DNA of 49,919 nt from an uncultured Gammaproteobacteria bacterium (GTDB taxonomy: Bacteria > Patescibacteriota > Microgenomatia > Levybacterales > UBA12049). Below the pieces are notes generated by a model. The model saw only the letters and a list, made by a program, of their open reading frames with translations. It was not told the DNA's origin and did no database searches. Every line of letters starts with the position of its first letter. Position 1 is the first letter of the stretch. The stretch covers positions 1 through 49,919 of the forward strand of contig CAZVON010000001.1 of the NCBI GenBank assembly GCA_964628435.1, in the 5' to 3' direction. Position numbers and translations under genes: made by a program. This document shows, one piece after another, positions 8,748 through 30,786 of this stretch.

Positions 8748-10079
8748 ATGAATTTTCTGCCCAACAGCAAATCAACTTATTTACATAGAACGTACACTCT
8801 GGGGAATTTTCAATACTCTTCTCAATTTAGAAAAACGCCATATTTTATTGGAATTCTTATTGACCTTATCTGCATTGCCATCATTTTTTTATATACTTTT
8901 ATTTCTAATCACGCCATTTATAATTTTGTTATTTCTCCACTATCGTCTATTAAACCGCTAACCAATACCAAAAACCAACATGAAGTTTTTGGATTCGCAC
9001 CATATTGGACAATCGATAAACTTGATAATGTTGATTTTTCTATTCTTACAACAGTGGCATATTTTGGAATATCTGTGGATCATGAAGGTAATTTAATTGA
9101 AGACACAGGTTATTCGTCGTTTCATAGCCAACAAGCAGCCGAATTATTTAAAAAAGCACACTTGCACGGAACACGAGTAGTGTTAACTCTTATGCAAATG
9201 GAAAATAATTCTATAGTTAATTTTCTTGATAACCCACAAGCACAAGTATCTGCAATCGAACAAGCTGTTGGACAGGTAAAAAACCGTGGAATTGATGGTA
9301 TCAATGTAGATTTTGAATATAATGGTAACCCTGGTTTTCAGTACCAAGAAAAATTTAGTATGTTTGTTAAAAACTTAACGCGACGAATGCATGAAGTAAT
9401 TCCTTTTTCTAAAGTGACTGTATCTGTATACGCTGCTTCAGCAAAAGATCCAAAATTATACAATATTGAACAGTTATCTCAAGTTTCCGACGGTATTTTT
9501 ATGATGGCATATGATTTTTCAACCCCTGCATCAGATACTGCAATTCCTACAGCACCATTGTATGGATATAAAGAAGGAAAGTATTGGTATGACATAGCAA
9601 CCGCTGTTGAAGATTTTCTAAAGCTAATGCCTTCACATAAACTTATTTTAGGATTACCGTGGTATGGGTATAACTTTGCTGTCTATCAACCAGAAGTAAA
9701 AAGTGAAACCCTTCCTTACTACTGGTGGGCTGGACAATCTGTTGCACAAACCTACACAGACGGAAAAGATGCAATCACTCCTGATATGCCTGGTATTTCT
9801 GATTATAAATCAGGCTGGGATATTCATGGACAAGTCGGATGGAAGGCATATTTTCTTGCGAATACGCAGACCTGGCGTATGGTATTTTTAGATGATGCAA
9901 AATCGCTGCAGATAAAATATGATTTCGCAAAAAACAAGAATCTTGCAGGTGTTGGGATTTGGGCACTTGGTTTTGATGAAGGGAAAAATGAGCTTTGGAA
10001 TGTTCTGCGCCAAATATTTGGGCCAAAAATTGCTGATAATAGAGTATCTCAAAAAGAAATTTATGAAAATACCTATTGA
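8748..10079 (+). CDS. Membrane-anchored glycoside hydrolase family 18 domain protein (chitinase/YaaH-like glycan hydrolase)
   Basis: N-terminal TM segment and the GH18 catalytic motif DGINVDFEY (DxxDxDxE). Confidence 0.8.
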   Translation: MNFLPNSKSTYLHRTYTLGNFQYSSQFRKTPYFIGILIDLICIAIIFLYTFISNHAIYNFVISPLSSIKPLTNTKNQHEVFGFAPYWTIDKLDNVDFSILTTVAYFGISVDHEGNLIEDTGYSSFHSQQAAELFKKAHLHGTRVVLTLMQMENNSIVNFLDNPQAQVSAIEQAVGQVKNRGIDGINVDFEYNGNPGFQYQEKFSMFVKNLTRRMHEVIPFSKVTVSVYAASAKDPKLYNIEQLSQVSDGIFMMAYDFSTPASDTAIPTAPLYGYKEGKYWYDIATAVEDFLKLMPSHKLILGLPWYGYNFAVYQPEVKSETLPYYWWAGQSVAQTYTDGKDAITPDMPGISDYKSGWDIHGQVGWKAYFLANTQTWRMVFLDDAKSLQIKYDFAKNKNLAGVGIWALGFDEGKNELWNVLRQIFGPKIADNRVSQKEIYENTY

Positions 10080-11136
10080 AATAGAAATTCCTAATCTATT
10101 TTCACTAAATTGGAAAATTTTCCTTATGACGTCTGCTGCAATTTTTTGTATGGTTGTGCTTCAAAAGTTTGAAGTACGCCCGCCTCAGTTATTAAACAAT
10201 TTTTTCCAAACGCCCTTACAATCAACAGAAATTTTAAAACCTTACTTAGAAAAAAAAAGCAGCGGATTTACCCTCAAGAAATACGCTCAAAATTTTAAAC
10301 CAACCGTACAAGCTGCATCGCCATTTTATAACGCATTTTCTTATATTGTGGTAGATTTTGATTCAGGAAAAGTATTGGAAGAGAAAAATGCATCAAAACG
10401 ACTTTCTATAGCATCGTTAACAAAAATTATGACTGCAGTAGTTACATTAGACCTGGTTTCACCATATGCATACTTTACTATTTCAAAAACCGCTTCTCAA
10501 GTGGAACCAACATCAATAGGAGTAATACCAGGAGAAAAAATGAATGTTAAGGAGCTATTACATGCTTTGTTATTAACATCAGCAAACGATGCGGCAGCGG
10601 TTATTCAGGAAAATATCAATAGATTATACAAACAAAATATTTTTCTGACTGCAATGAATCAAAAAGCTAAAATTCTAAAATTACAAAACACACATTTTTC
10701 AAATGCGCAAGGATTTGATAGTCCCTCCAATTACAGCACTGCAGAAGATTTAGCAGTGCTGTCCCACTATGCCCTTACTCAATACCCCCTTATTGCAGCA
10801 ATCGCACAGAAAGAATACCAATTTTTACCAGCTGATACATATCACAAGCAGTTTGATCTCTACAATTGGAATGGATTAATTGGAGTATATCCCAATATTC
10901 TCGGACTTAAGATTGGCAATACAGAACATGCTCAAAAAACCGCTGCCGTGATTTCGCAACGTAACAATAAAAAAATACTTGTTATTTTGCTAGGAGCACC
11001 TGGCGTGCTAGAAAGAGATTTATGGGTTTCTCAATTGTTAGACCTTGGCTTCCAAAAAGCACAAAACCTTCTCCCTATTCAAGTGAGTGAATTGCAACTC
11101 CAAAGTAAATATTCAACATGGAAATATTGGAATTAA
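10063..11136 (+). CDS. D-alanyl-D-alanine carboxypeptidase (peptidase S11, PBP5-like)
   Basis: SxxK (SLTK), SxN (SAND) and a KxG-like (KIGNT) motif. The start at ATG 10063 precedes a TM segment. The track start at 9919 lies deep inside the GH18 gene. Confidence 0.8.
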   Translation: MKIPIEIEIPNLFSLNWKIFLMTSAAIFCMVVLQKFEVRPPQLLNNFFQTPLQSTEILKPYLEKKSSGFTLKKYAQNFKPTVQAASPFYNAFSYIVVDFDSGKVLEEKNASKRLSIASLTKIMTAVVTLDLVSPYAYFTISKTASQVEPTSIGVIPGEKMNVKELLHALLLTSANDAAAVIQENINRLYKQNIFLTAMNQKAKILKLQNTHFSNAQGFDSPSNYSTAEDLAVLSHYALTQYPLIAAIAQKEYQFLPADTYHKQFDLYNWNGLIGVYPNILGLKIGNTEHAQKTAAVISQRNNKKILVILLGAPGVLERDLWVSQLLDLGFQKAQNLLPIQVSELQLQSKYSTWKYWN

Positions 11137-19283: not shown

Positions 19284-21068
19284 TCAATGATGTGCCTTAA
19301 TATCTTTTATCTTTAATTGCAAATTCGTACTGCCATTCCACTTGTTCTCGTCTATTGTATATACAATGTCTACATGATCTCCAATATGAAAGTTATGACT
19401 TCTCTCCCCCAATCCAAATCCTATTGCATCAATTTTGAATTCTTGTCCTGAGTCTTGCCGAAGGAACTTGTCCTGAGCTCCTCGAGTCTGAACGACTTCG
19501 GAGTCGAAGACTTGTCGAAGGATTGAATTTTGAACTTTGAACTTCACATGGTTTCTTTCCCTTCCTATCAATCTCATATCATTAATGATTACGTTTCTGG
19601 ATACAAAAGTTGGCTCTGGGTTTCCCATTCCAAAAGGCGCAAGTTGTTGCAATGTTTGATAAACGAATGAATCAATACCTGAAAGCGGCAACTCACAATC
19701 AATTCGAAGAGTACGAGTAAGTTTATCTTCATGAAGTAATTCGTCCGCTAATTTTTCGAGTTTTTCTTTAAGAAGGGTAAGTTTTGCGGTTTCGACTGTA
19801 AAACCAGCAGCCATGGGATGACCACCAGCGTCTACTAAAAAATCTGATGCCATGCGAATAAACTCGATAATATTAAATCCAGAAACGGACCGTGCAGATG
19901 CTTTACTATGTATCTGTCCTTTAGCAATAACTATTGAAGGACGATAGTATTCTTCCACTAATTTTCCTGCTACCAAACCAATTACTCCTGGCTGATACGA
20001 TTCATGCGCAATGAATAATAGCTTTTTATTCGTAATTTCCAACTTACGATTCATTATTTCATTTTTTGCATGTTGCACAGTTTCTATGGTTAATTGTTGA
20101 CGACTTCTATTGGTATTTCCTAATATCTGAGCCAAATCTTGCGCTCTTTTTCTGCTATTTGTGCAGATAAGCCGAAGACTATCCATTGCGTACTCCAACC
20201 TTCCCATTGCATTTAATCGTGGAGCGATAATATGCCCAACTGCATAAGCATCAATTTCTTCACGGTTTATTGTAGCTTCTTTAAAAAGCTCAATGAACCC
20301 AAGTCTCTTGGTACTACGTAATGCTTCTAATCCAAACCTGGTGAGTACTCTATTTGCTCCAGTAAGTGGAACCAGATCCGCAATAGTTGCCAAGGCAACA
20401 AGCTCCAAGTGATTCTCGTTTTGACTTTTACCTTTTGACTTTTGCTTTTTGACTTCCTGTGCCAGTAAGTACGCCACTCCTGTTCCACAAAGTTTTGTTG
20501 TATAAACTATCGCCAAAGCATTTGGCAATTTTGTTGATCGAATATGATGGTCGGTAATAATCACATCAATCTGTTGTTTATGTGCAAATTCAACTGCCTC
20601 ATGTGCTACAATCCCGTTATCTACGGTAATTATCAACTTGAGATTTGGGATTTGAGATTGGAGATTTTCGATCCCTCGGATCGAGAGTCCGTATCCTTCA
20701 TCGATTCTATGAGGAATATATGGAGTTACCTGTGCGCCTAGACTATTGAGCGTTTCCCACAAAATCGCTGTCCCACAAATACCATCAACATCGTAGTCAC
20801 CAAATACTACAATTTGTTCCTGATTTTTTATTGCCCAACGAATTCTATCCAATGCTTTTTTGAGCTGTTTTTTGTCGATCCCTACCGCAACAACAGTTAC
20901 TTGGCCAAGACCAGGATCTAAAAATTCCTCTTTTTCTTTTTTTGAAGTCTGCCCTCTGTTTTCAAGAAGAAGTTCTACGAGTTCTTCAATTTTGAATTCT
21001 TTTCCTGAGTCTTGCCGAAGGATTGAATTTTGAATTTTGAATTTATTGATTATTTCCCATTTTTTCAT
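19284..21068 (-). CDS. recJ: Single-stranded-DNA-specific exonuclease RecJ (with two in-frame repeat-element insertions)
   Basis: DHH motifs VFGDYDVDGICGTAIL, DNGI and ITDHH, plus DHHA1 GGHPMAAGF. Confidence 0.9.
   Translation of the reverse strand: MKKWEIINKFKIQNSILRQDSGKEFKIEELVELLLENRGQTSKKEKEEFLDPGLGQVTVVAVGIDKKQLKKALDRIRWAIKNQEQIVVFGDYDVDGICGTAILWETLNSLGAQVTPYIPHRIDEGYGLSIRGIENLQSQIPNLKLIITVDNGIVAHEAVEFAHKQQIDVIITDHHIRSTKLPNALAIVYTTKLCGTGVAYLLAQEVKKQKSKGKSQNENHLELVALATIADLVPLTGANRVLTRFGLEALRSTKRLGFIELFKEATINREEIDAYAVGHIIAPRLNAMGRLEYAMDSLRLICTNSRKRAQDLAQILGNTNRSRQQLTIETVQHAKNEIMNRKLEITNKKLLFIAHESYQPGVIGLVAGKLVEEYYRPSIVIAKGQIHSKASARSVSGFNIIEFIRMASDFLVDAGGHPMAAGFTVETAKLTLLKEKLEKLADELLHEDKLTRTLRIDCELPLSGIDSFVYQTLQQLAPFGMGNPEPTFVSRNVIINDMRLIGRERNHVKFKVQNSILRQVFDSEVVQTRGAQDKFLRQDSGQEFKIDAIGFGLGERSHNFHIGDHVDIVYTIDENKWNGSTNLQLKIKDIKAHH
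19429..19544 (-). repeat. Repeat element copy B (expanded, 113-116 nt) in frame in the recJ C-terminal domain
   Basis: Both arms match copy A, with an extra 57 nt in between. It encodes KFKVQNSILRQVFDSEVVQTRGAQDKFLRQDSGQEFKID. Confidence 0.8.
20986..21044 (-). repeat. Repeat element copy A (about 56 nt) in frame near the recJ N-terminus
   Basis: The + strand reads TCAATTTTGAATTCTTTTCCTGAGTCTTGCCGAAGGATTGAATTTTGAATTTTGAA. It encodes KFKIQNSILRQDSGKEFKIE. Confidence 0.8.
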
Positions 21069-24260: not shown

Positions 24261-24719
24261 ATGACAAAGCAACAATTGCGTGATGCATTAAAACAAGCAA
24301 TGCTTGCGAGAGATATAATAAAAACTTCGGTTTTGAGAATGCTTTTATCTGCAATTAGTTACCATGAGATTCAAAAAGGAGGAGCAGGATACGAAGCAGA
24401 AGAAGACGACATATTAACAGTTATCCAAAAGGAAACTAAACAACACAAAGATTCAATAGAACAATTCAAAAACGCCAATCGACAAGATTTGGTAGATAAG
24501 GAAACCAAAGAGCTTGAGATTCTAAAATCATACCTTCCACAACAAATGAGTGAAGAAGACGTAAAAAAGATTGTCCAGGAAACTATCCAAGAACTTGGCG
24601 TATCCACACTTCAAGAGAAGGGAAAAGTTATGCAAGCCCTCATGCCAAAATTAAAAGGCAAAGCAGACGGAGGATTAATCAGCAAGATTGTTAAAGAAGA
24701 ACTATCCAAAAATTCTTAA
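24261..24719 (+). CDS. yqeY: GatB/YqeY domain-containing protein
   Basis: LRDALKQAMLARD...VLRMLLSAI...YLPQQMSEEDV...KGKADGGLISKIVKEEL is typical of YqeY. Confidence 0.85.
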   Translation: MTKQQLRDALKQAMLARDIIKTSVLRMLLSAISYHEIQKGGAGYEAEEDDILTVIQKETKQHKDSIEQFKNANRQDLVDKETKELEILKSYLPQQMSEEDVKKIVQETIQELGVSTLQEKGKVMQALMPKLKGKADGGLISKIVKEELSKNS

Positions 24720-25630
24720 TTCTTATTCTTAATTCTGTTTCTGGTCCATTCTTGCCAAACTACCAAGAGCGGGGAAGCGTTGAAAATGGAAGAATAGGTT
24801 CCGCTTAAAATTCCTACTAACAACGCCACAATAAACCACTTTGTGCTTTCGCCTCCAAATAACAAAAGAGTAAATAGTACTAGAAGCACAGTTAAGGAAG
24901 TATTTAACGAACGGGTAAATGTCTGCAAGATTGATTCATTCACCACAAAAGCAAATGGAGACGTTGGCAGTCGTTTAAGATTCTCCCGAATTCTATCAAA
25001 TACAACAATCGTGTCATGAACAGAAAACCCAATAATGGTTAAAATGGCTGTTACAAAAAGGCTATCTACCTCCACCCCATACACTTGTCCAAGAATCGAA
25101 AAAACACCTACGACAATTAAAATATCGTGAATAAGAGCAATGATTGCACAAACGCCAAAACGCCAACTACTAGCAGGTTTTGGCACAGAACGAAACGACC
25201 AAGCAATATATAAAACAATCAAAAACGCCGCTAGAATAATGGCTTTAAATGCATTTTGCGTTATCTCGTTTCCAATTGTTGGTCCAATAGTTTCAAAACT
25301 TAACTCTTTCACATTCTTAAATTCTTTATCTAATTCTTGTAGTATTTCTTGATGTTTTTTTTGATCAAGCGGCTTTGTCCGAATAATATATATATCTTCC
25401 CCAGATTTCTGTGCTGAGCTTATTGCTACTCCCTTCGATTTGAGAATATCATTGAATTTTGCTTGCCCGCCGAAGTCTTGGCGAAGGCGGGAGCTTTGAA
25501 TTTCCATTCTGCTTCCACCAGTAAAATCAATTGATGGTTTTAAACCATATAAAGTAAGTGAAATAATCCCTGGAATTAGTACCACAAGGGAGATAAAAAA
25601 GTATACATATTTTTTACCAACGATATCCAT
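24716..25630 (-). CDS. secF: Protein translocase subunit SecF
   Basis: IDFTGG motif, 6 TM segments, and HDTIVVFDRIREN. Confidence 0.9.
   Translation of the reverse strand: MDIVGKKYVYFFISLVVLIPGIISLTLYGLKPSIDFTGGSRMEIQSSRLRQDFGGQAKFNDILKSKGVAISSAQKSGEDIYIIRTKPLDQKKHQEILQELDKEFKNVKELSFETIGPTIGNEITQNAFKAIILAAFLIVLYIAWSFRSVPKPASSWRFGVCAIIALIHDILIVVGVFSILGQVYGVEVDSLFVTAILTIIGFSVHDTIVVFDRIRENLKRLPTSPFAFVVNESILQTFTRSLNTSLTVLLVLFTLLLFGGESTKWFIVALLVGILSGTYSSIFNASPLLVVWQEWTRNRIKNKN
25449..25504 (-). repeat. Repeat element copy C (diverged) in frame in secF
   Basis: The + strand reads TCATTGAATTTTGCTTGCCCGCCGAAGTCTTGGCGAAGGCGGGAGCTTTGAATTTC. The core GTCTTG(G)CGAAGG is shared with the recJ copies. It encodes EIQSSRLRQDFGGQAKFND. 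Confidence 0.65.
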
Positions 25631-25689
25631 ATTTACGAAATTTCAAATATCAAATAAATACCAATCAACAAATTCCAAATAATACACCA

Positions 25690-30349: not shown

Positions 30350-30384
30350 AAGATTATTTAACACGATCTATTTTCTACTTTCAA

Positions 30385-30786
30385 TTATCTATTATCAAAT
30401 TGTTGTAAGCAATCTTTTAAAACTACAAATGCCAGTAGAGCACATTTTTTTCGTGTCTCTGAAATTTCTATTCCCAGCAATCCTAACATACTCGCTTCGG
30501 AAAAGTTTGTTAGTTTGACAATGCTTCTTCCTTTAACATACTCTGTTAAAAGAGACGCAGCAGCAATACTAATCGCACAACCTTTTCCCATAAATCTAAC
30601 TTTACTTACAATCTTATTGTCTCTTCTCGTTCTTCTTTCTCTTGTACCCCATTTCATACACATTTCTATTTCATCTCCACATAACGGATTTCTCTGATAT
30701 GAATAAACATCAAATTGTAATAATTTACCAAAGTTTAAAGGATTTCGATAATGCTCTAAAATTTCTTCTTTATATATGGATGTCAT
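30385..30786 (-). CDS. sufU: NifU/IscU/SufU-type Fe-S cluster scaffold protein
   Basis: ILEHYRNPLNFG, NPLCGDEIEM, GKGCAISIAAASLLTE and a C-terminal KKCALLA. The ATG at 30786 forms an ATGA junction with the upstream gene. Confidence 0.85.
   Translation of the reverse strand: MTSIYKEEILEHYRNPLNFGKLLQFDVYSYQRNPLCGDEIEMCMKWGTRERRTRRDNKIVSKVRFMGKGCAISIAAASLLTEYVKGRSIVKLTNFSEASMLGLLGIEISETRKKCALLAFVVLKDCLQQFDNR

Follow-up and report, generated by a model that had tools for sequence, protein, structure and literature searches.

In-frame repeats of a putatively mobile kind in housekeeping genes of Levybacteria and other CPR bacteria

Introduction

In-frame colonization of essential genes by selfish repeats has been regarded as a near-unique oddity of Rickettsia. 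Rickettsia palindromic elements (RPEs; Ogata et al. 2000 and 2002, as summarized in PMC10969869) are dispersed, nonautonomous repeats of about 100-150 bp that are inserted in frame into many unrelated housekeeping genes of a small-genome, host-dependent bacterium with A+T-rich DNA without inactivating them. They are palindromic, each family encodes a conserved peptide in one frame, and the inserts are predicted to lie on the protein surface. Other small repeats share some of these properties. REP elements and their REPIN doublets, mobilized by RAYT transposases, are G+C-rich units of 20-40 nt with a short closing stem, by definition extragenic and specific to a genus or species. Intragenic MITEs and small repeats of other bacteria (ERIC, Correia, BOX, QMITE1, MIRU) occasionally create in-frame fusions with host ORFs, but are mostly intergenic and have terminal inverted repeats and target-site duplications. 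In yeast mitochondria, mobile G+C clusters and byp elements are short, hairpin-prone modules that invade an A+T-rich genome including its protein-coding genes, with nested and composite forms and short direct repeats in their flanks; byp elements break the frame and are bypassed by the ribosome. Finally, the contingency loci of Neisseria, Haemophilus and Mycoplasma carry tetra-, penta- and heptanucleotide repeats inside ORFs that are homogenized by slippage.

Here, we examine a short G+C-rich repeat within runs of a 7-base repeat in recJ and secF of a Levybacteria contig (CAZVON010000001.1, positions 1 to 49,919; hereafter the window, i.e., the whole 49,919-nt stretch analyzed). An earlier note, made from sequence alone, had proposed that an element of roughly 56 nt with A/T-rich arms and a G+C-rich core occurs twice in recJ and once, more diverged, in secF, always on the coding strand and in frame, at positions resembling surface linkers, and had likened it to RPEs.

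Results

The observation made in the note was confirmed. The host gene of the first two copies is recJ (19284-21068, - strand, 594 aa), whose homologues carry the DHH, DHHA1 and RecJ_OB domains and are named RecJ of Ca. Levybacteria, and the host of the third is secF (24716-25630, - strand, 304 aa; SecD_SecF_C and Sec_GG domains, homologues named SecF of Levybacteria). Positions 19429-19465 match 20986-21022 at 97% over 37 nt, and 19508-19544 match 21008-21044 at 89% over 37 nt. A 24-mer from the element, allowing up to 3 mismatches, hit only these two places, whereas none of 100 dinucleotide-preserving shuffles gave a match. The similarity of the two recJ copies speaks for recent copying. The secF copy (25449-25504) shares the motif TCTTG(G/C)CGAAGG and TTGAATTT-type flanks, but is clearly more diverged, with 4 of 19 core positions differing. 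All three copies lie in frame on the coding (-) strand and encode the related peptides described in the note.

The arms required a different description from the generic A/T-rich arms of the note, as they are tandem heptamer arrays, (AAATTCA)n on the coding strand, and are direct rather than inverted repeats. In copy 1, the 5' arm (21023-21044, - strand) holds 3.1 AAATTCA units encoding KFKIQNS (TRF period 7, 100% matches), followed by a 24-nt core (20999-21022, - strand), TCCTTCGGCAAGACTCAGGAAAAG on the coding strand, encoding ILRQDSGK, and a 3' arm (20986-20998, - strand) reading AATTCAAAATTGA on the coding strand. Removing the 24 nt restores an uninterrupted, in-phase array of about five units, such as that found at this site in the core-less orthologues L110 and L112. 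With the last three core bases, the 3' arm forms a 16-nt stretch, AAGAATTCAAAATTGA, that is identical in copy 2. In copy 2, the 5' arm (19523-19544, - strand), which was also recovered as a repeat family, consists on the coding strand of two AAGTTCA units, one AAATTCA unit and a final A (TRF period 7, 3.1 copies), and the 3' arm (19429-19441, - strand) is again AATTCAAAATTGA. Between them lies an 81-nt composite core (19442-19522, - strand), in which one unit (TCCTTCGAC...GCTCAGGACAAG) carries a nested G+C-rich insertion in its center and is followed by a second unit (TTCCTTCGGCAAGACTCAGGACAAG). The nested module, TCTTCGACTCCGARGTCGYTCAGACTCGAGGAG, recurs beside the same core in the Patescibacteria locus L004, and related pieces occur in a further composite in L111. 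A search of the protein collections with the 41-aa composite peptide found nothing, the query being too short and low in complexity.

Copy 3 (25449-25504, - strand) belongs to a different core subfamily, here termed type B, with 30-34 nt variants of the core. Its core, at about 25461-25494, reads GCTCCCGCC TTCGCCAAGACTTC GGCGGG CAAGC on the coding strand and is flanked by AAATTCAAA and AAAATTCAAT. It is closer to a copy in the recJ N terminus of another genome, L109, with which it shares 47 of 56 nt including the arm GCAAAATTCAAT, than to the recJ copies of the window, and a related core sits in L238. The basic unit of the family is 24 nt, YCCTTCG-N6-CTCAGGRCARG, with 30-34 nt variants and nested or doubled composites, and in Levybacteria coding regions it sits inside tandem arrays of an A-rich heptamer (AAATTCA and relatives). 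The hairpin predicted for copy 3 is -13.9 kcal/mol, but the window copies do not fold better than shuffled sequence (z = 0.19, -0.50 and -1.57 for the three copies), and thus a hairpin-dependent mechanism is not supported for them. No Rfam family matched at gathering score on the whole window, nor at E up to 10 on recJ and on the L111 composite, which gave only a chance-level hit.

Among 120 RecJ and 120 SecF orthologues of Levybacteria, the three positions are lineage-variable hot spots that hold bare heptamer arrays (KFKIQNSKFKI and similar), different cores, or neither. Filled and empty sites have the same number of units, about five, with no target duplication and at most 2-3 nt (CAA) repeated at the junctions. 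No presence/absence polymorphism between near-identical genomes was available; the closest RecJ orthologue is 65% identical. Some RecJ orthologues carry MITE-like doublets bounded by the terminal inverted repeats TGTCATCCTGAG...CTCAGAATGACA at the same site, whereas the window copies have direct heptamer arms only. The note had named two findings that would count against it, and neither was borne out: the sequence is not ancestral, and it is not a convergent peptide motif, because the same DNA core is read in all three frames. At the SecF site the core CCCTTCGAC..GCTCAGGGCAAG is read as TLRLRSGRE, PFDSAQGK or NPSTGSGQ in three genomes, and among 23 metagenomic copies in sense ORFs the frames split 9:7:7. 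The conserved entity is therefore DNA, not peptide.

The core belongs to a very widespread cross-phylum repeat family and is not a Levybacteria speciality. At least 120 metagenome loci were found, with in-frame hosts confirmed by Pfam as GluRS (gltX), ThrRS (thrS), RecR, L17 (rplQ), TsaD, MurB and a GT2 glycosyltransferase. Of 109 distinct metagenome contexts, 52 lie inside ORFs of at least 150 aa, and here the bare core occurs in both orientations (23 sense, 29 antisense), so that the uniform orientation noted in the window does not extend to the family; only the heptamer arms force the sense orientation. Elsewhere the unit forms intergenic inverted doublets with a short spacer that can fold into one long hairpin. 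Doublets such as ..CCTTCGACTACGCTCAGGATTGACGCTGAGCGTAGTCGAAGCGTC.. occur in several metagenome loci and in the RecJ C-terminal sites of L109, L236 and L237, but not in the window itself. L004 (intergenic) and L065 (inside a 498-aa Saccharibacteria ORF) share more than 50 nt including arms. A scan of GTDB genomes with a 17-mer was noisy, with 108 hits against about 70 expected by chance, and only the subset with recognizable context was used. The scan did not recover the window's own copies and an exact search with its RecJ protein returned nothing, and hence only three copies are known for this genome. Within the syntenic block, recJ is a strikingly preferred host (7 of 8 core hits), which is unexplained.

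The RecJ AlphaFold2 model has a mean pLDDT of 90, with values below 50 only at residues 18-21 and 527-540, both inside the elements, and the arms extend the flanking beta strands. In SecF, the core lies between the first strand and helix of the periplasmic domain. In these models, which are predictions and not solved structures, the inserts are the only segments with pLDDT below 50 and sit at beta-hairpin tips or loops, supporting the surface location proposed in the note, although its N-terminal W-x-I segment is predicted as a beta strand and not as a helix.

Discussion

The RPE-like interpretation offered in the note was partly supported. The segments are lineage-specific, dispersed in frame in many unrelated housekeeping genes and located in low-confidence predicted loops; in-frame insertion into unrelated genes and a predicted surface location are shared with RPEs. 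However, the cores are 24, 34 and 81 nt and the whole arm-core-arm units 56-116 nt rather than 100-150 bp, the units are weakly or not palindromic, no peptide frame is conserved, the flanks are direct heptamer repeats that also exist without any core at the same orthologous sites, and the family extends far beyond one genus. The element works like an RPE but is not of RPE type by size, palindromy or fixed peptide frame; it was not compared with RPE-1 to RPE-10 sequences, to which the taxonomic distance and size difference make similarity unlikely. The size, G+C richness, intergenic abundance, coexistence of singlets and doublets, and inverted doublets resemble REPs and REPINs. Whether the unit qualifies as a REP-like imperfect palindrome is left undecided by our data, as size and abundance fit but the closing stem is only 2-4 bp in most copies and the conserved part is the "loop." In contrast to REPs, all three window copies are intragenic, the unit sequence is shared across phyla, and REPs are not reported to be associated with heptamer arrays. 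We found no transposase, RAYT, HUH enzyme or recombinase among 40 window ORFs, which does not settle whether a cognate RAYT exists because the rest of the genome was not examined. In comparison with yeast mitochondrial byp elements, the frame here stays open and the inserts are presumably translated. Literature searches found no description of this repeat and nothing relevant on CPR, albeit with limited coverage.

With moderate confidence, we propose that the three copies are members of a family of short, nonautonomous elements that spread within and between CPR genomes, best read as REP/REPIN- or RPE-like selfish repeats tolerated in surface loops. In this view, the duplicated entity is arm-core-arm, copied from one heptamer array to another by an unidentified mechanism using arm homology or microhomology, such as gene conversion or template switching, and possibly lost again by slippage, leaving a bare array. 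Only copies that land in tolerant surface loops, contain no stop and keep the frame would survive in essential genes, and because 7 = 1 mod 3, changes in the number of heptamer units could restore the frame when the core length is not a multiple of three; the surviving copies would then simply be translated as extra loop residues. In the sequence labelled L235 the core is 22 nt, yet the gene stays in frame. The (AAATTCA)n array has no stop codon in any sense frame and stops in all three antisense frames, as do nine of the eleven heptamers tested. The repeat structure, its variability between lineages, its dispersal in many genes, its reading in three frames and its location in loops rest directly on our analyses, whereas the copying mechanism, translation of the insert and selfishness, i.e., the absence of a function for the host, are inferences.

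Among the alternatives, the least unlikely is that the 24-nt unit, with or without the arrays, is a functional cis-element recognized by a conserved protein or a structured nucleic-acid signal, for instance for recombination, repair, uptake or pausing, whose presence in ORFs would be selected and not merely tolerated. Conservation of the unit, especially TTCG..CTCAGG, across distant phyla while its flanks vary could reflect function rather than mobility, the arrays persist at orthologous sites with a conserved number of units, the elements are concentrated in a gene for single-stranded-DNA processing, and in Daviesbacteria the same 17-mer sits in a conserved block just upstream of start codons. 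Yet occupancy at any one site is patchy, different core families substitute for one another, copies occur in both orientations and all frames in unrelated genes and between genes, and neither an Rfam match nor a significant fold of the window copies was found. Phase-variable contingency microsatellites, with the cores as secondary passengers, appear still less likely. The period-7 units are not a multiple of three, lie in ORFs in arrays of 3-8 units, are 5.5-fold enriched over shuffled sequence and are homogenized within arrays, implying continuing slippage or conversion, and some orthologues differ by exactly three units (7 aa), e.g., NELRIKNPELRI against NELRI. However, all 240 orthologues retrieved are in frame, an observation that leaves on/off alleles neither shown nor excluded since frameshifted alleles would not be recovered as full-length proteins and no population data were included. 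Furthermore, on/off switching is implausible in the essential genes secF, gltX, thrS and rplQ, the arrays are short for efficient slippage, and identical cores in different genes are not explained.

A purely local history of old intragenic duplication or gene conversion within recJ, with vertical inheritance and decay, is similarly improbable. The two best-matching copies are 1.5 kb apart in one gene, only three copies are known in this genome and target-site duplications are lacking, but this reading is largely refuted by the shared arm-core-arm sequence of secF here and recJ in L109 and by in-frame cores in at least seven other, unrelated gene families; the sequence shared by L004 and L065 and the different cores at the same orthologous position also speak against it. 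We consider very unlikely a recoding signal whereby the hairpin between matching heptamer codons is skipped by the ribosome, as in phage T4 gene 60 or mitochondrial byp elements, or removed at the RNA level. Direct repeats flanking a G+C-rich segment in an A+T-rich gene are the layout of byp elements and the 22-nt core of L235 is not a multiple of three, but every copy examined is open and in frame with its host, including composites of 81 nt and about 170 nt, no stop codon follows a take-off codon, and the window cores fold weakly. Selection for a shared peptide, LRQD.G, encoded with the same codons would account for the resemblance of the three window peptides, but is refuted by the unrelated peptides read from one core, and RecJ and SecF are unrelated in fold and cell location. 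Smaller readings were also set aside. A stem-loop with covarying stems and a conserved loop was tested on the 17-mer hits, which show an excess of 2-4 bp closures but a 3' flank that is mostly conserved sequence (GGCAGGC or GACAGG) rather than a covarying stem. Hammerhead, k-turn and tRNA-like readings, considered by eye, lacked the required core nucleotides, a tRNA-like sequence next to the core in L037 is not called as a tRNA, and the split aspS gene in L111 is not an array-driven frameshift.

These findings show a process comparable to, but structurally different from, that of Rickettsia in Levybacteria and other lineages of CPR (Patescibacteria), a huge uncultivated radiation with tiny genomes. 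It would explain much of the length variation and many of the odd low-complexity peptides (LRQAQDK, PFDFAQGK, SCHPERSEGS...) in CPR proteins, which matters for annotation, alignment and phylogeny, and offers natural markers for strain typing. It also poses the mechanistic puzzle of how a conserved 24-nt unit spreads across phyla and why 7-nt arrays dominate the tandem repeats in these genomes. A more far-reaching possibility, which we regard as doubtful, is that arrays and unit form one dedicated system rather than junk, in which stop-free, frame-neutral arrays would act as safe-harbor landing pads and a cross-phylum mobile module with a conserved recognition sequence (TTCG-N6-CTCAGG) would be written into and erased from them by an unidentified enzyme or a homology-guided copying process. 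The result would be continual remodeling of surface loops of essential CPR proteins, a new mode of intragenic mobility with heptamer slippage as a built-in frame corrector.

Heptamer arrays are the dominant class of tandem repeat, with TRF finding 38 in 148 kb against 6.9 in shuffled sequence. Arrays without cores are commoner than arrays with cores and persist at orthologous sites with concerted evolution, hinting at a biology of their own that the selfish-element model does not explain. In recJ, a core-less GTCAAAA-type array (20419-20455, - strand, 5.3 units, residues about 205-217) coincides with the insertion hot spot at query position 212, where 41 of 120 orthologues carry inserts and the AlphaFold2 pLDDT dips to 66, and an AATCTCA-type array (20638-20667, - strand, 4.3 units, residues about 134-144) coincides with the hot spot at query positions 136-140. 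An AAGAATT-type array (24711-24736, - strand, 3.9 units) forms the SecF C terminus, RNRIKNKN*, and L109 has an array at the equivalent position.

A short repeat inserted in frame in recJ and secF

The window has a G+C content of 35%, and its genes find their best matches in Candidatus Levybacteria (Microgenomates, CPR/Patescibacteria). The repeat was located in recJ (ORF 19284-21068, minus strand) and secF (24716-25630, minus strand). Within recJ, positions 19429-19465 matched 20986-21022 at 97% over 37 nt, and 19508-19544 matched 21008-21044 at 89% over 37 nt. A 24-mer from the element, allowing up to three mismatches, hit only these two places, whereas none of 100 dinucleotide-preserving shuffles gave a match. 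The secF copy (25449-25504) shares TCTTG(G/C)CGAAGG and TTGAATTT-type flanks, but is much more diverged. All copies lie at the coordinates stated in an earlier note on this sequence, are in frame on the coding strand, and encode the peptides listed in that note; the observation made there, of a short element sitting in frame twice in recJ and once in secF, was therefore confirmed.

On the coding strand, copy 1 reads AAATTCA AAATTCA AAATTCA A, followed by the core TCCTTCGGCAAGACTCAGGAAAAG and then AATTCA AAATTGA. The arms are therefore a tandem heptamer array (TRF period 7, 100% matches), made of direct rather than inverted repeats, and deletion of the 24-nt core restores a perfectly in-phase array of about five units. 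Copy 2 has the same arms around an 81-nt composite, in which one unit with a nested G+C-rich insertion in its center is followed by a second unit. Copy 3 has a different core, which we term type B, GCTCCCGCC TTCGCCAAGACTTC GGCGGG CAAGC, between AAATTCAAA and AAAATTCAAT. As single strands, the three copies did not fold better than shuffled sequence (z = 0.19, -0.50, and -1.57), and only copy 3 has a real stem. No Rfam family matched. Two further heptamer arrays without a core were found in recJ, at 20419-20455 and 20638-20667, and secF ends in another at 24711-24736.

Orthologues indicate insertion rather than ancestral sequence

The earlier note had named homologous residues in orthologues from distant taxa as a finding that would refute insertion. 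We aligned 120 Levybacteria RecJ proteins, 56-65% identical to that of the window. At the N-terminal site many read KFKIQNSKFKI, KFRIQNSEFRI, QFKVQSSKFKV, ESGIKNQESGIK and so on, which are pure heptamer arrays translated through all three frames. Others have an array split by quite different G+C-rich peptides (ILRQAQDK, PFDFAQGK, PHFAKASRGK, LPAGRS, LLRRGFGGQ, and one insert of 55 aa), and some have neither. The C-terminal site behaves the same way and also holds longer inserts of the SCHPERSEGS...FAQNDK type. In all, at least seven positions in RecJ are insertion hot spots (query positions 8-23, 113, 136-140, 212, 339-346, 512-545, and 577), two of which coincide with the core-less arrays of the window's recJ. 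They carry several repeat families, namely the LRQAQDK/PFDFAQGK/PSTGSGQ unit, SCHPERSEGS...FAQNDK doublets, ILNSFQDL...MLKQVQHD palindromes, and PAGR-type palindromes. In 120 SecF orthologues, the site after DFTGGS shows arrays (EIQNSKFKIQNS, YQISNIKYQIS) in about half and cores in about 10-15%, whereas the more distant sequences have an ordinary sequence there (RLTLSFPKTVTNQ). The segments are thus insertions and not ancestral sequence.

The DNA of these sites was obtained from four syntenic loci (L109 to L112) and six more (L233 to L238). Empty N-terminal recJ sites are (AAGTTCA)x5 in L110 and AAATTCA followed by (GAATTCA)x4 in L112, whereas filled sites keep the same total of about five units, with the core splitting one unit and no target-site duplication. 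In a second trio, the empty site of L236 (...AAGAATC/AGGAATCAGG...) is occupied at exactly the same point by two unrelated cores in L237 and L238, the latter a type B relative of the window's secF copy. The recJ N-terminal element of L109 matches the window's secF element at 47 of 56 nt, including the right arm GCAAAATTCAAT, although the host genes differ. In L111, from another Levybacterium, a nested G+C-rich composite of about 170 nt (55 aa; 10040-10200) sits between AAGTTCA arms at the recJ N terminus; it folds significantly better than shuffled sequence (-78.6 kcal/mol, z = -2.9) and looks like hairpins inserted into hairpins. In L238, at about nucleotides 327-357 of recJ (protein position about 113), a unit with a perfect nested hairpin (TCCGCC GACT GGCGGA) replaces native sequence at a site without a heptamer array, and the host's ACCCTT supplies the first bases of the unit, which looks like a microhomology junction.

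At the SecF site, the core CCCTTCGAC..GCTCAGGGCAAG is read as TLRLRSGRE in L233, PFDSAQGK in L234, and NPSTGSGQ in L235, that is, in all three frames; in L235 it is 22 nt long and the array makes up the frame. Convergent codon usage for a shared peptide motif, together with the absence of further copies genome-wide, had been put forward in advance as an alternative that would overturn the insertion reading, but these data exclude selection for a shared peptide. What is conserved is the DNA.

Distribution across genomes and metagenomes

A scan of GTDB species genomes with the 17-mer core gave 108 loci, against about 70 expected by chance. The nonrandom loci fall into two groups. The first comprises CPR copies with heptamer arms: L004 in Patescibacteria, between ybaB and pth, and L001 and L065 in one Saccharibacteria MAG, with L065 inside a 498-aa ORF. 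L004 and L065 share more than 50 nt including arms. The second comprises copies of the generic form ..CCCTTCGGCAAGACTCAGGGCAGGC.. in Nitrospirota, Planctomycetota, Acidobacteriota, Proteobacteria, and others. In Daviesbacteria, a conserved block of about 60 nt, TTGACTTTCGGGCTATAGTCCTGAGTCTTGCCGAAGGGTAATTTATGGTTTAAAGTA, contains the same 17-mer (L029:865, L033:4468 and 7814, L056:6028, and L099:938) and lies a few bases upstream of the ATG of RhuM-like genes and of paralogous small genes, where it may be a leader or a promoter-associated repeat.

A metagenome scan with TTCAATCCTTCG-N6-CTCAGGA returned at least 120 loci. Of 109 distinct contexts, 23 lie inside a sense ORF of at least 150 aa (frames 9:7:7), 29 lie inside an antisense ORF of at least 150 aa, and 57 are in no long ORF. 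In-frame hosts confirmed with Pfam are GluRS, ThrRS, RecR, ribosomal protein L17, a GT2 glycosyltransferase, TsaD, and MurB; by eye, a second GluRS and DnaG are also hosts. Many intergenic copies are inverted doublets, in which a unit and a reversed unit a few bases apart are able to form one long hairpin, and others sit at the tip of long A+T-rich hairpins. In two metagenome loci that are not CPR-like (L167 and L178, 43-59% G+C), propeller-repeat proteins carry the unit-encoded peptide (FNPSTALRTG, YDPSAALRTGG) at the same point of several blades, suggesting either that the unit was inserted repeatedly or that it has become part of the repeat.

Heptamer arrays dominate the tandem repeats of Levybacteria DNA

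In 148 kb of Levybacteria DNA, TRF found 38 period-7 arrays, compared to 6.9 in second-order Markov shuffles, and no other period was enriched as strongly. They occur in the window (19523-19544, 20419-20455, 20638-20667, 21023-21044, 24711-24736, 25638-25656, and 30366-30396) and in loci L109 to L112, L233, and L234. The arrays recur at orthologous positions in recJ, secF, gltX, and cca, with units that differ between genomes but are uniform within an array, which is concerted evolution. The common units (AAATTCA, AAGTTCA, GAATTCA, AATATCA, AAAGTCA, and others) have no stop in any sense frame and a stop in every antisense frame. This explains why array-borne copies are always in the sense orientation, whereas a bare core is found in ORFs in both orientations.

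The inserts are predicted to form exposed loops

Structural modeling had been proposed beforehand as a test of whether the inserts map to exposed loops. The AlphaFold2 model of the window's RecJ has a mean pLDDT of 90 and a pTM of 0.88, with values below 50 only at residues 18-21 and 527-540, both inside the elements, and a dip to 66 at the core-less array at residues 211-220. The left arm of copy 2 (VKFKVQN) and the end of its right arm (KIDAIG) continue the two strands of an OB-fold beta hairpin. In SecF, the core lies between the first strand and the first helix of the periplasmic domain, where pLDDT is 76. The inserts are thus predicted, though not measured, to be exposed loops.

A putative family of short nonautonomous repeats

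The best-supported reading is that of a family of short, nonautonomous repeats, comparable to REP/REPIN elements, MITEs, and above all the Rickettsia palindromic elements (RPE), that spread within and between CPR genomes and survive in essential genes only where they are stop-free, in frame, and in tolerant loops. The unit that is duplicated is arm-core-arm. Given that bare arrays also exist at the same sites, that there is no target duplication, and that different cores occupy the same point, we favor copying guided by arm homology or microhomology (gene conversion or template switching), with loss by slippage, over classical transposition, although this step is inferred and has not been shown. 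As 7 = 1 mod 3, a change in unit number can restore the frame, and the 22-nt core in L235 is consistent with this. A Pfam scan of 40 window ORFs identified ordinary housekeeping, cell-envelope, Suf, and sugar-nucleotide genes, and no transposase, RAYT, or recombinase among them. The model does not explain why heptamer arrays are so common and so stable, why recJ is such a favored host (7 of 8 core hits in the 20-kb syntenic block), or why a 24-nt sequence is conserved across phyla, and these points leave room for a functional reading.

The interpretation in the earlier note was partly supported. The element works like an RPE but fails RPE membership on size, palindromy, and fixed peptide frame. 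It resembles REP/REPIN in unit size and doublets, but is not restricted to extragenic positions, and no RAYT is known for it. It lacks the terminal inverted repeats and target duplication of a MITE. It recalls the G+C clusters of yeast mitochondria, but is bacterial and appears to be read through. We found no description of such elements in CPR bacteria, within limited coverage of the literature.

Other features of the related loci

In the Peribacteria locus L037 (1628-1769), the core lies about 50 nt from a tRNA-Asp gene and is preceded by GGGGCCATAGCTCAG, which looks like the 5' end of a tRNA but is not called as one. In L111 (12523-13795), aspS is split into two overlapping ORFs (209 and 217 aa), and the break is not at a heptamer array. 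An intein (Intein_splicing plus LAGLIDADG_3 domains) is present in a TPP-enzyme/PFOR-beta gene of a related Levybacterium (L110:1-618).
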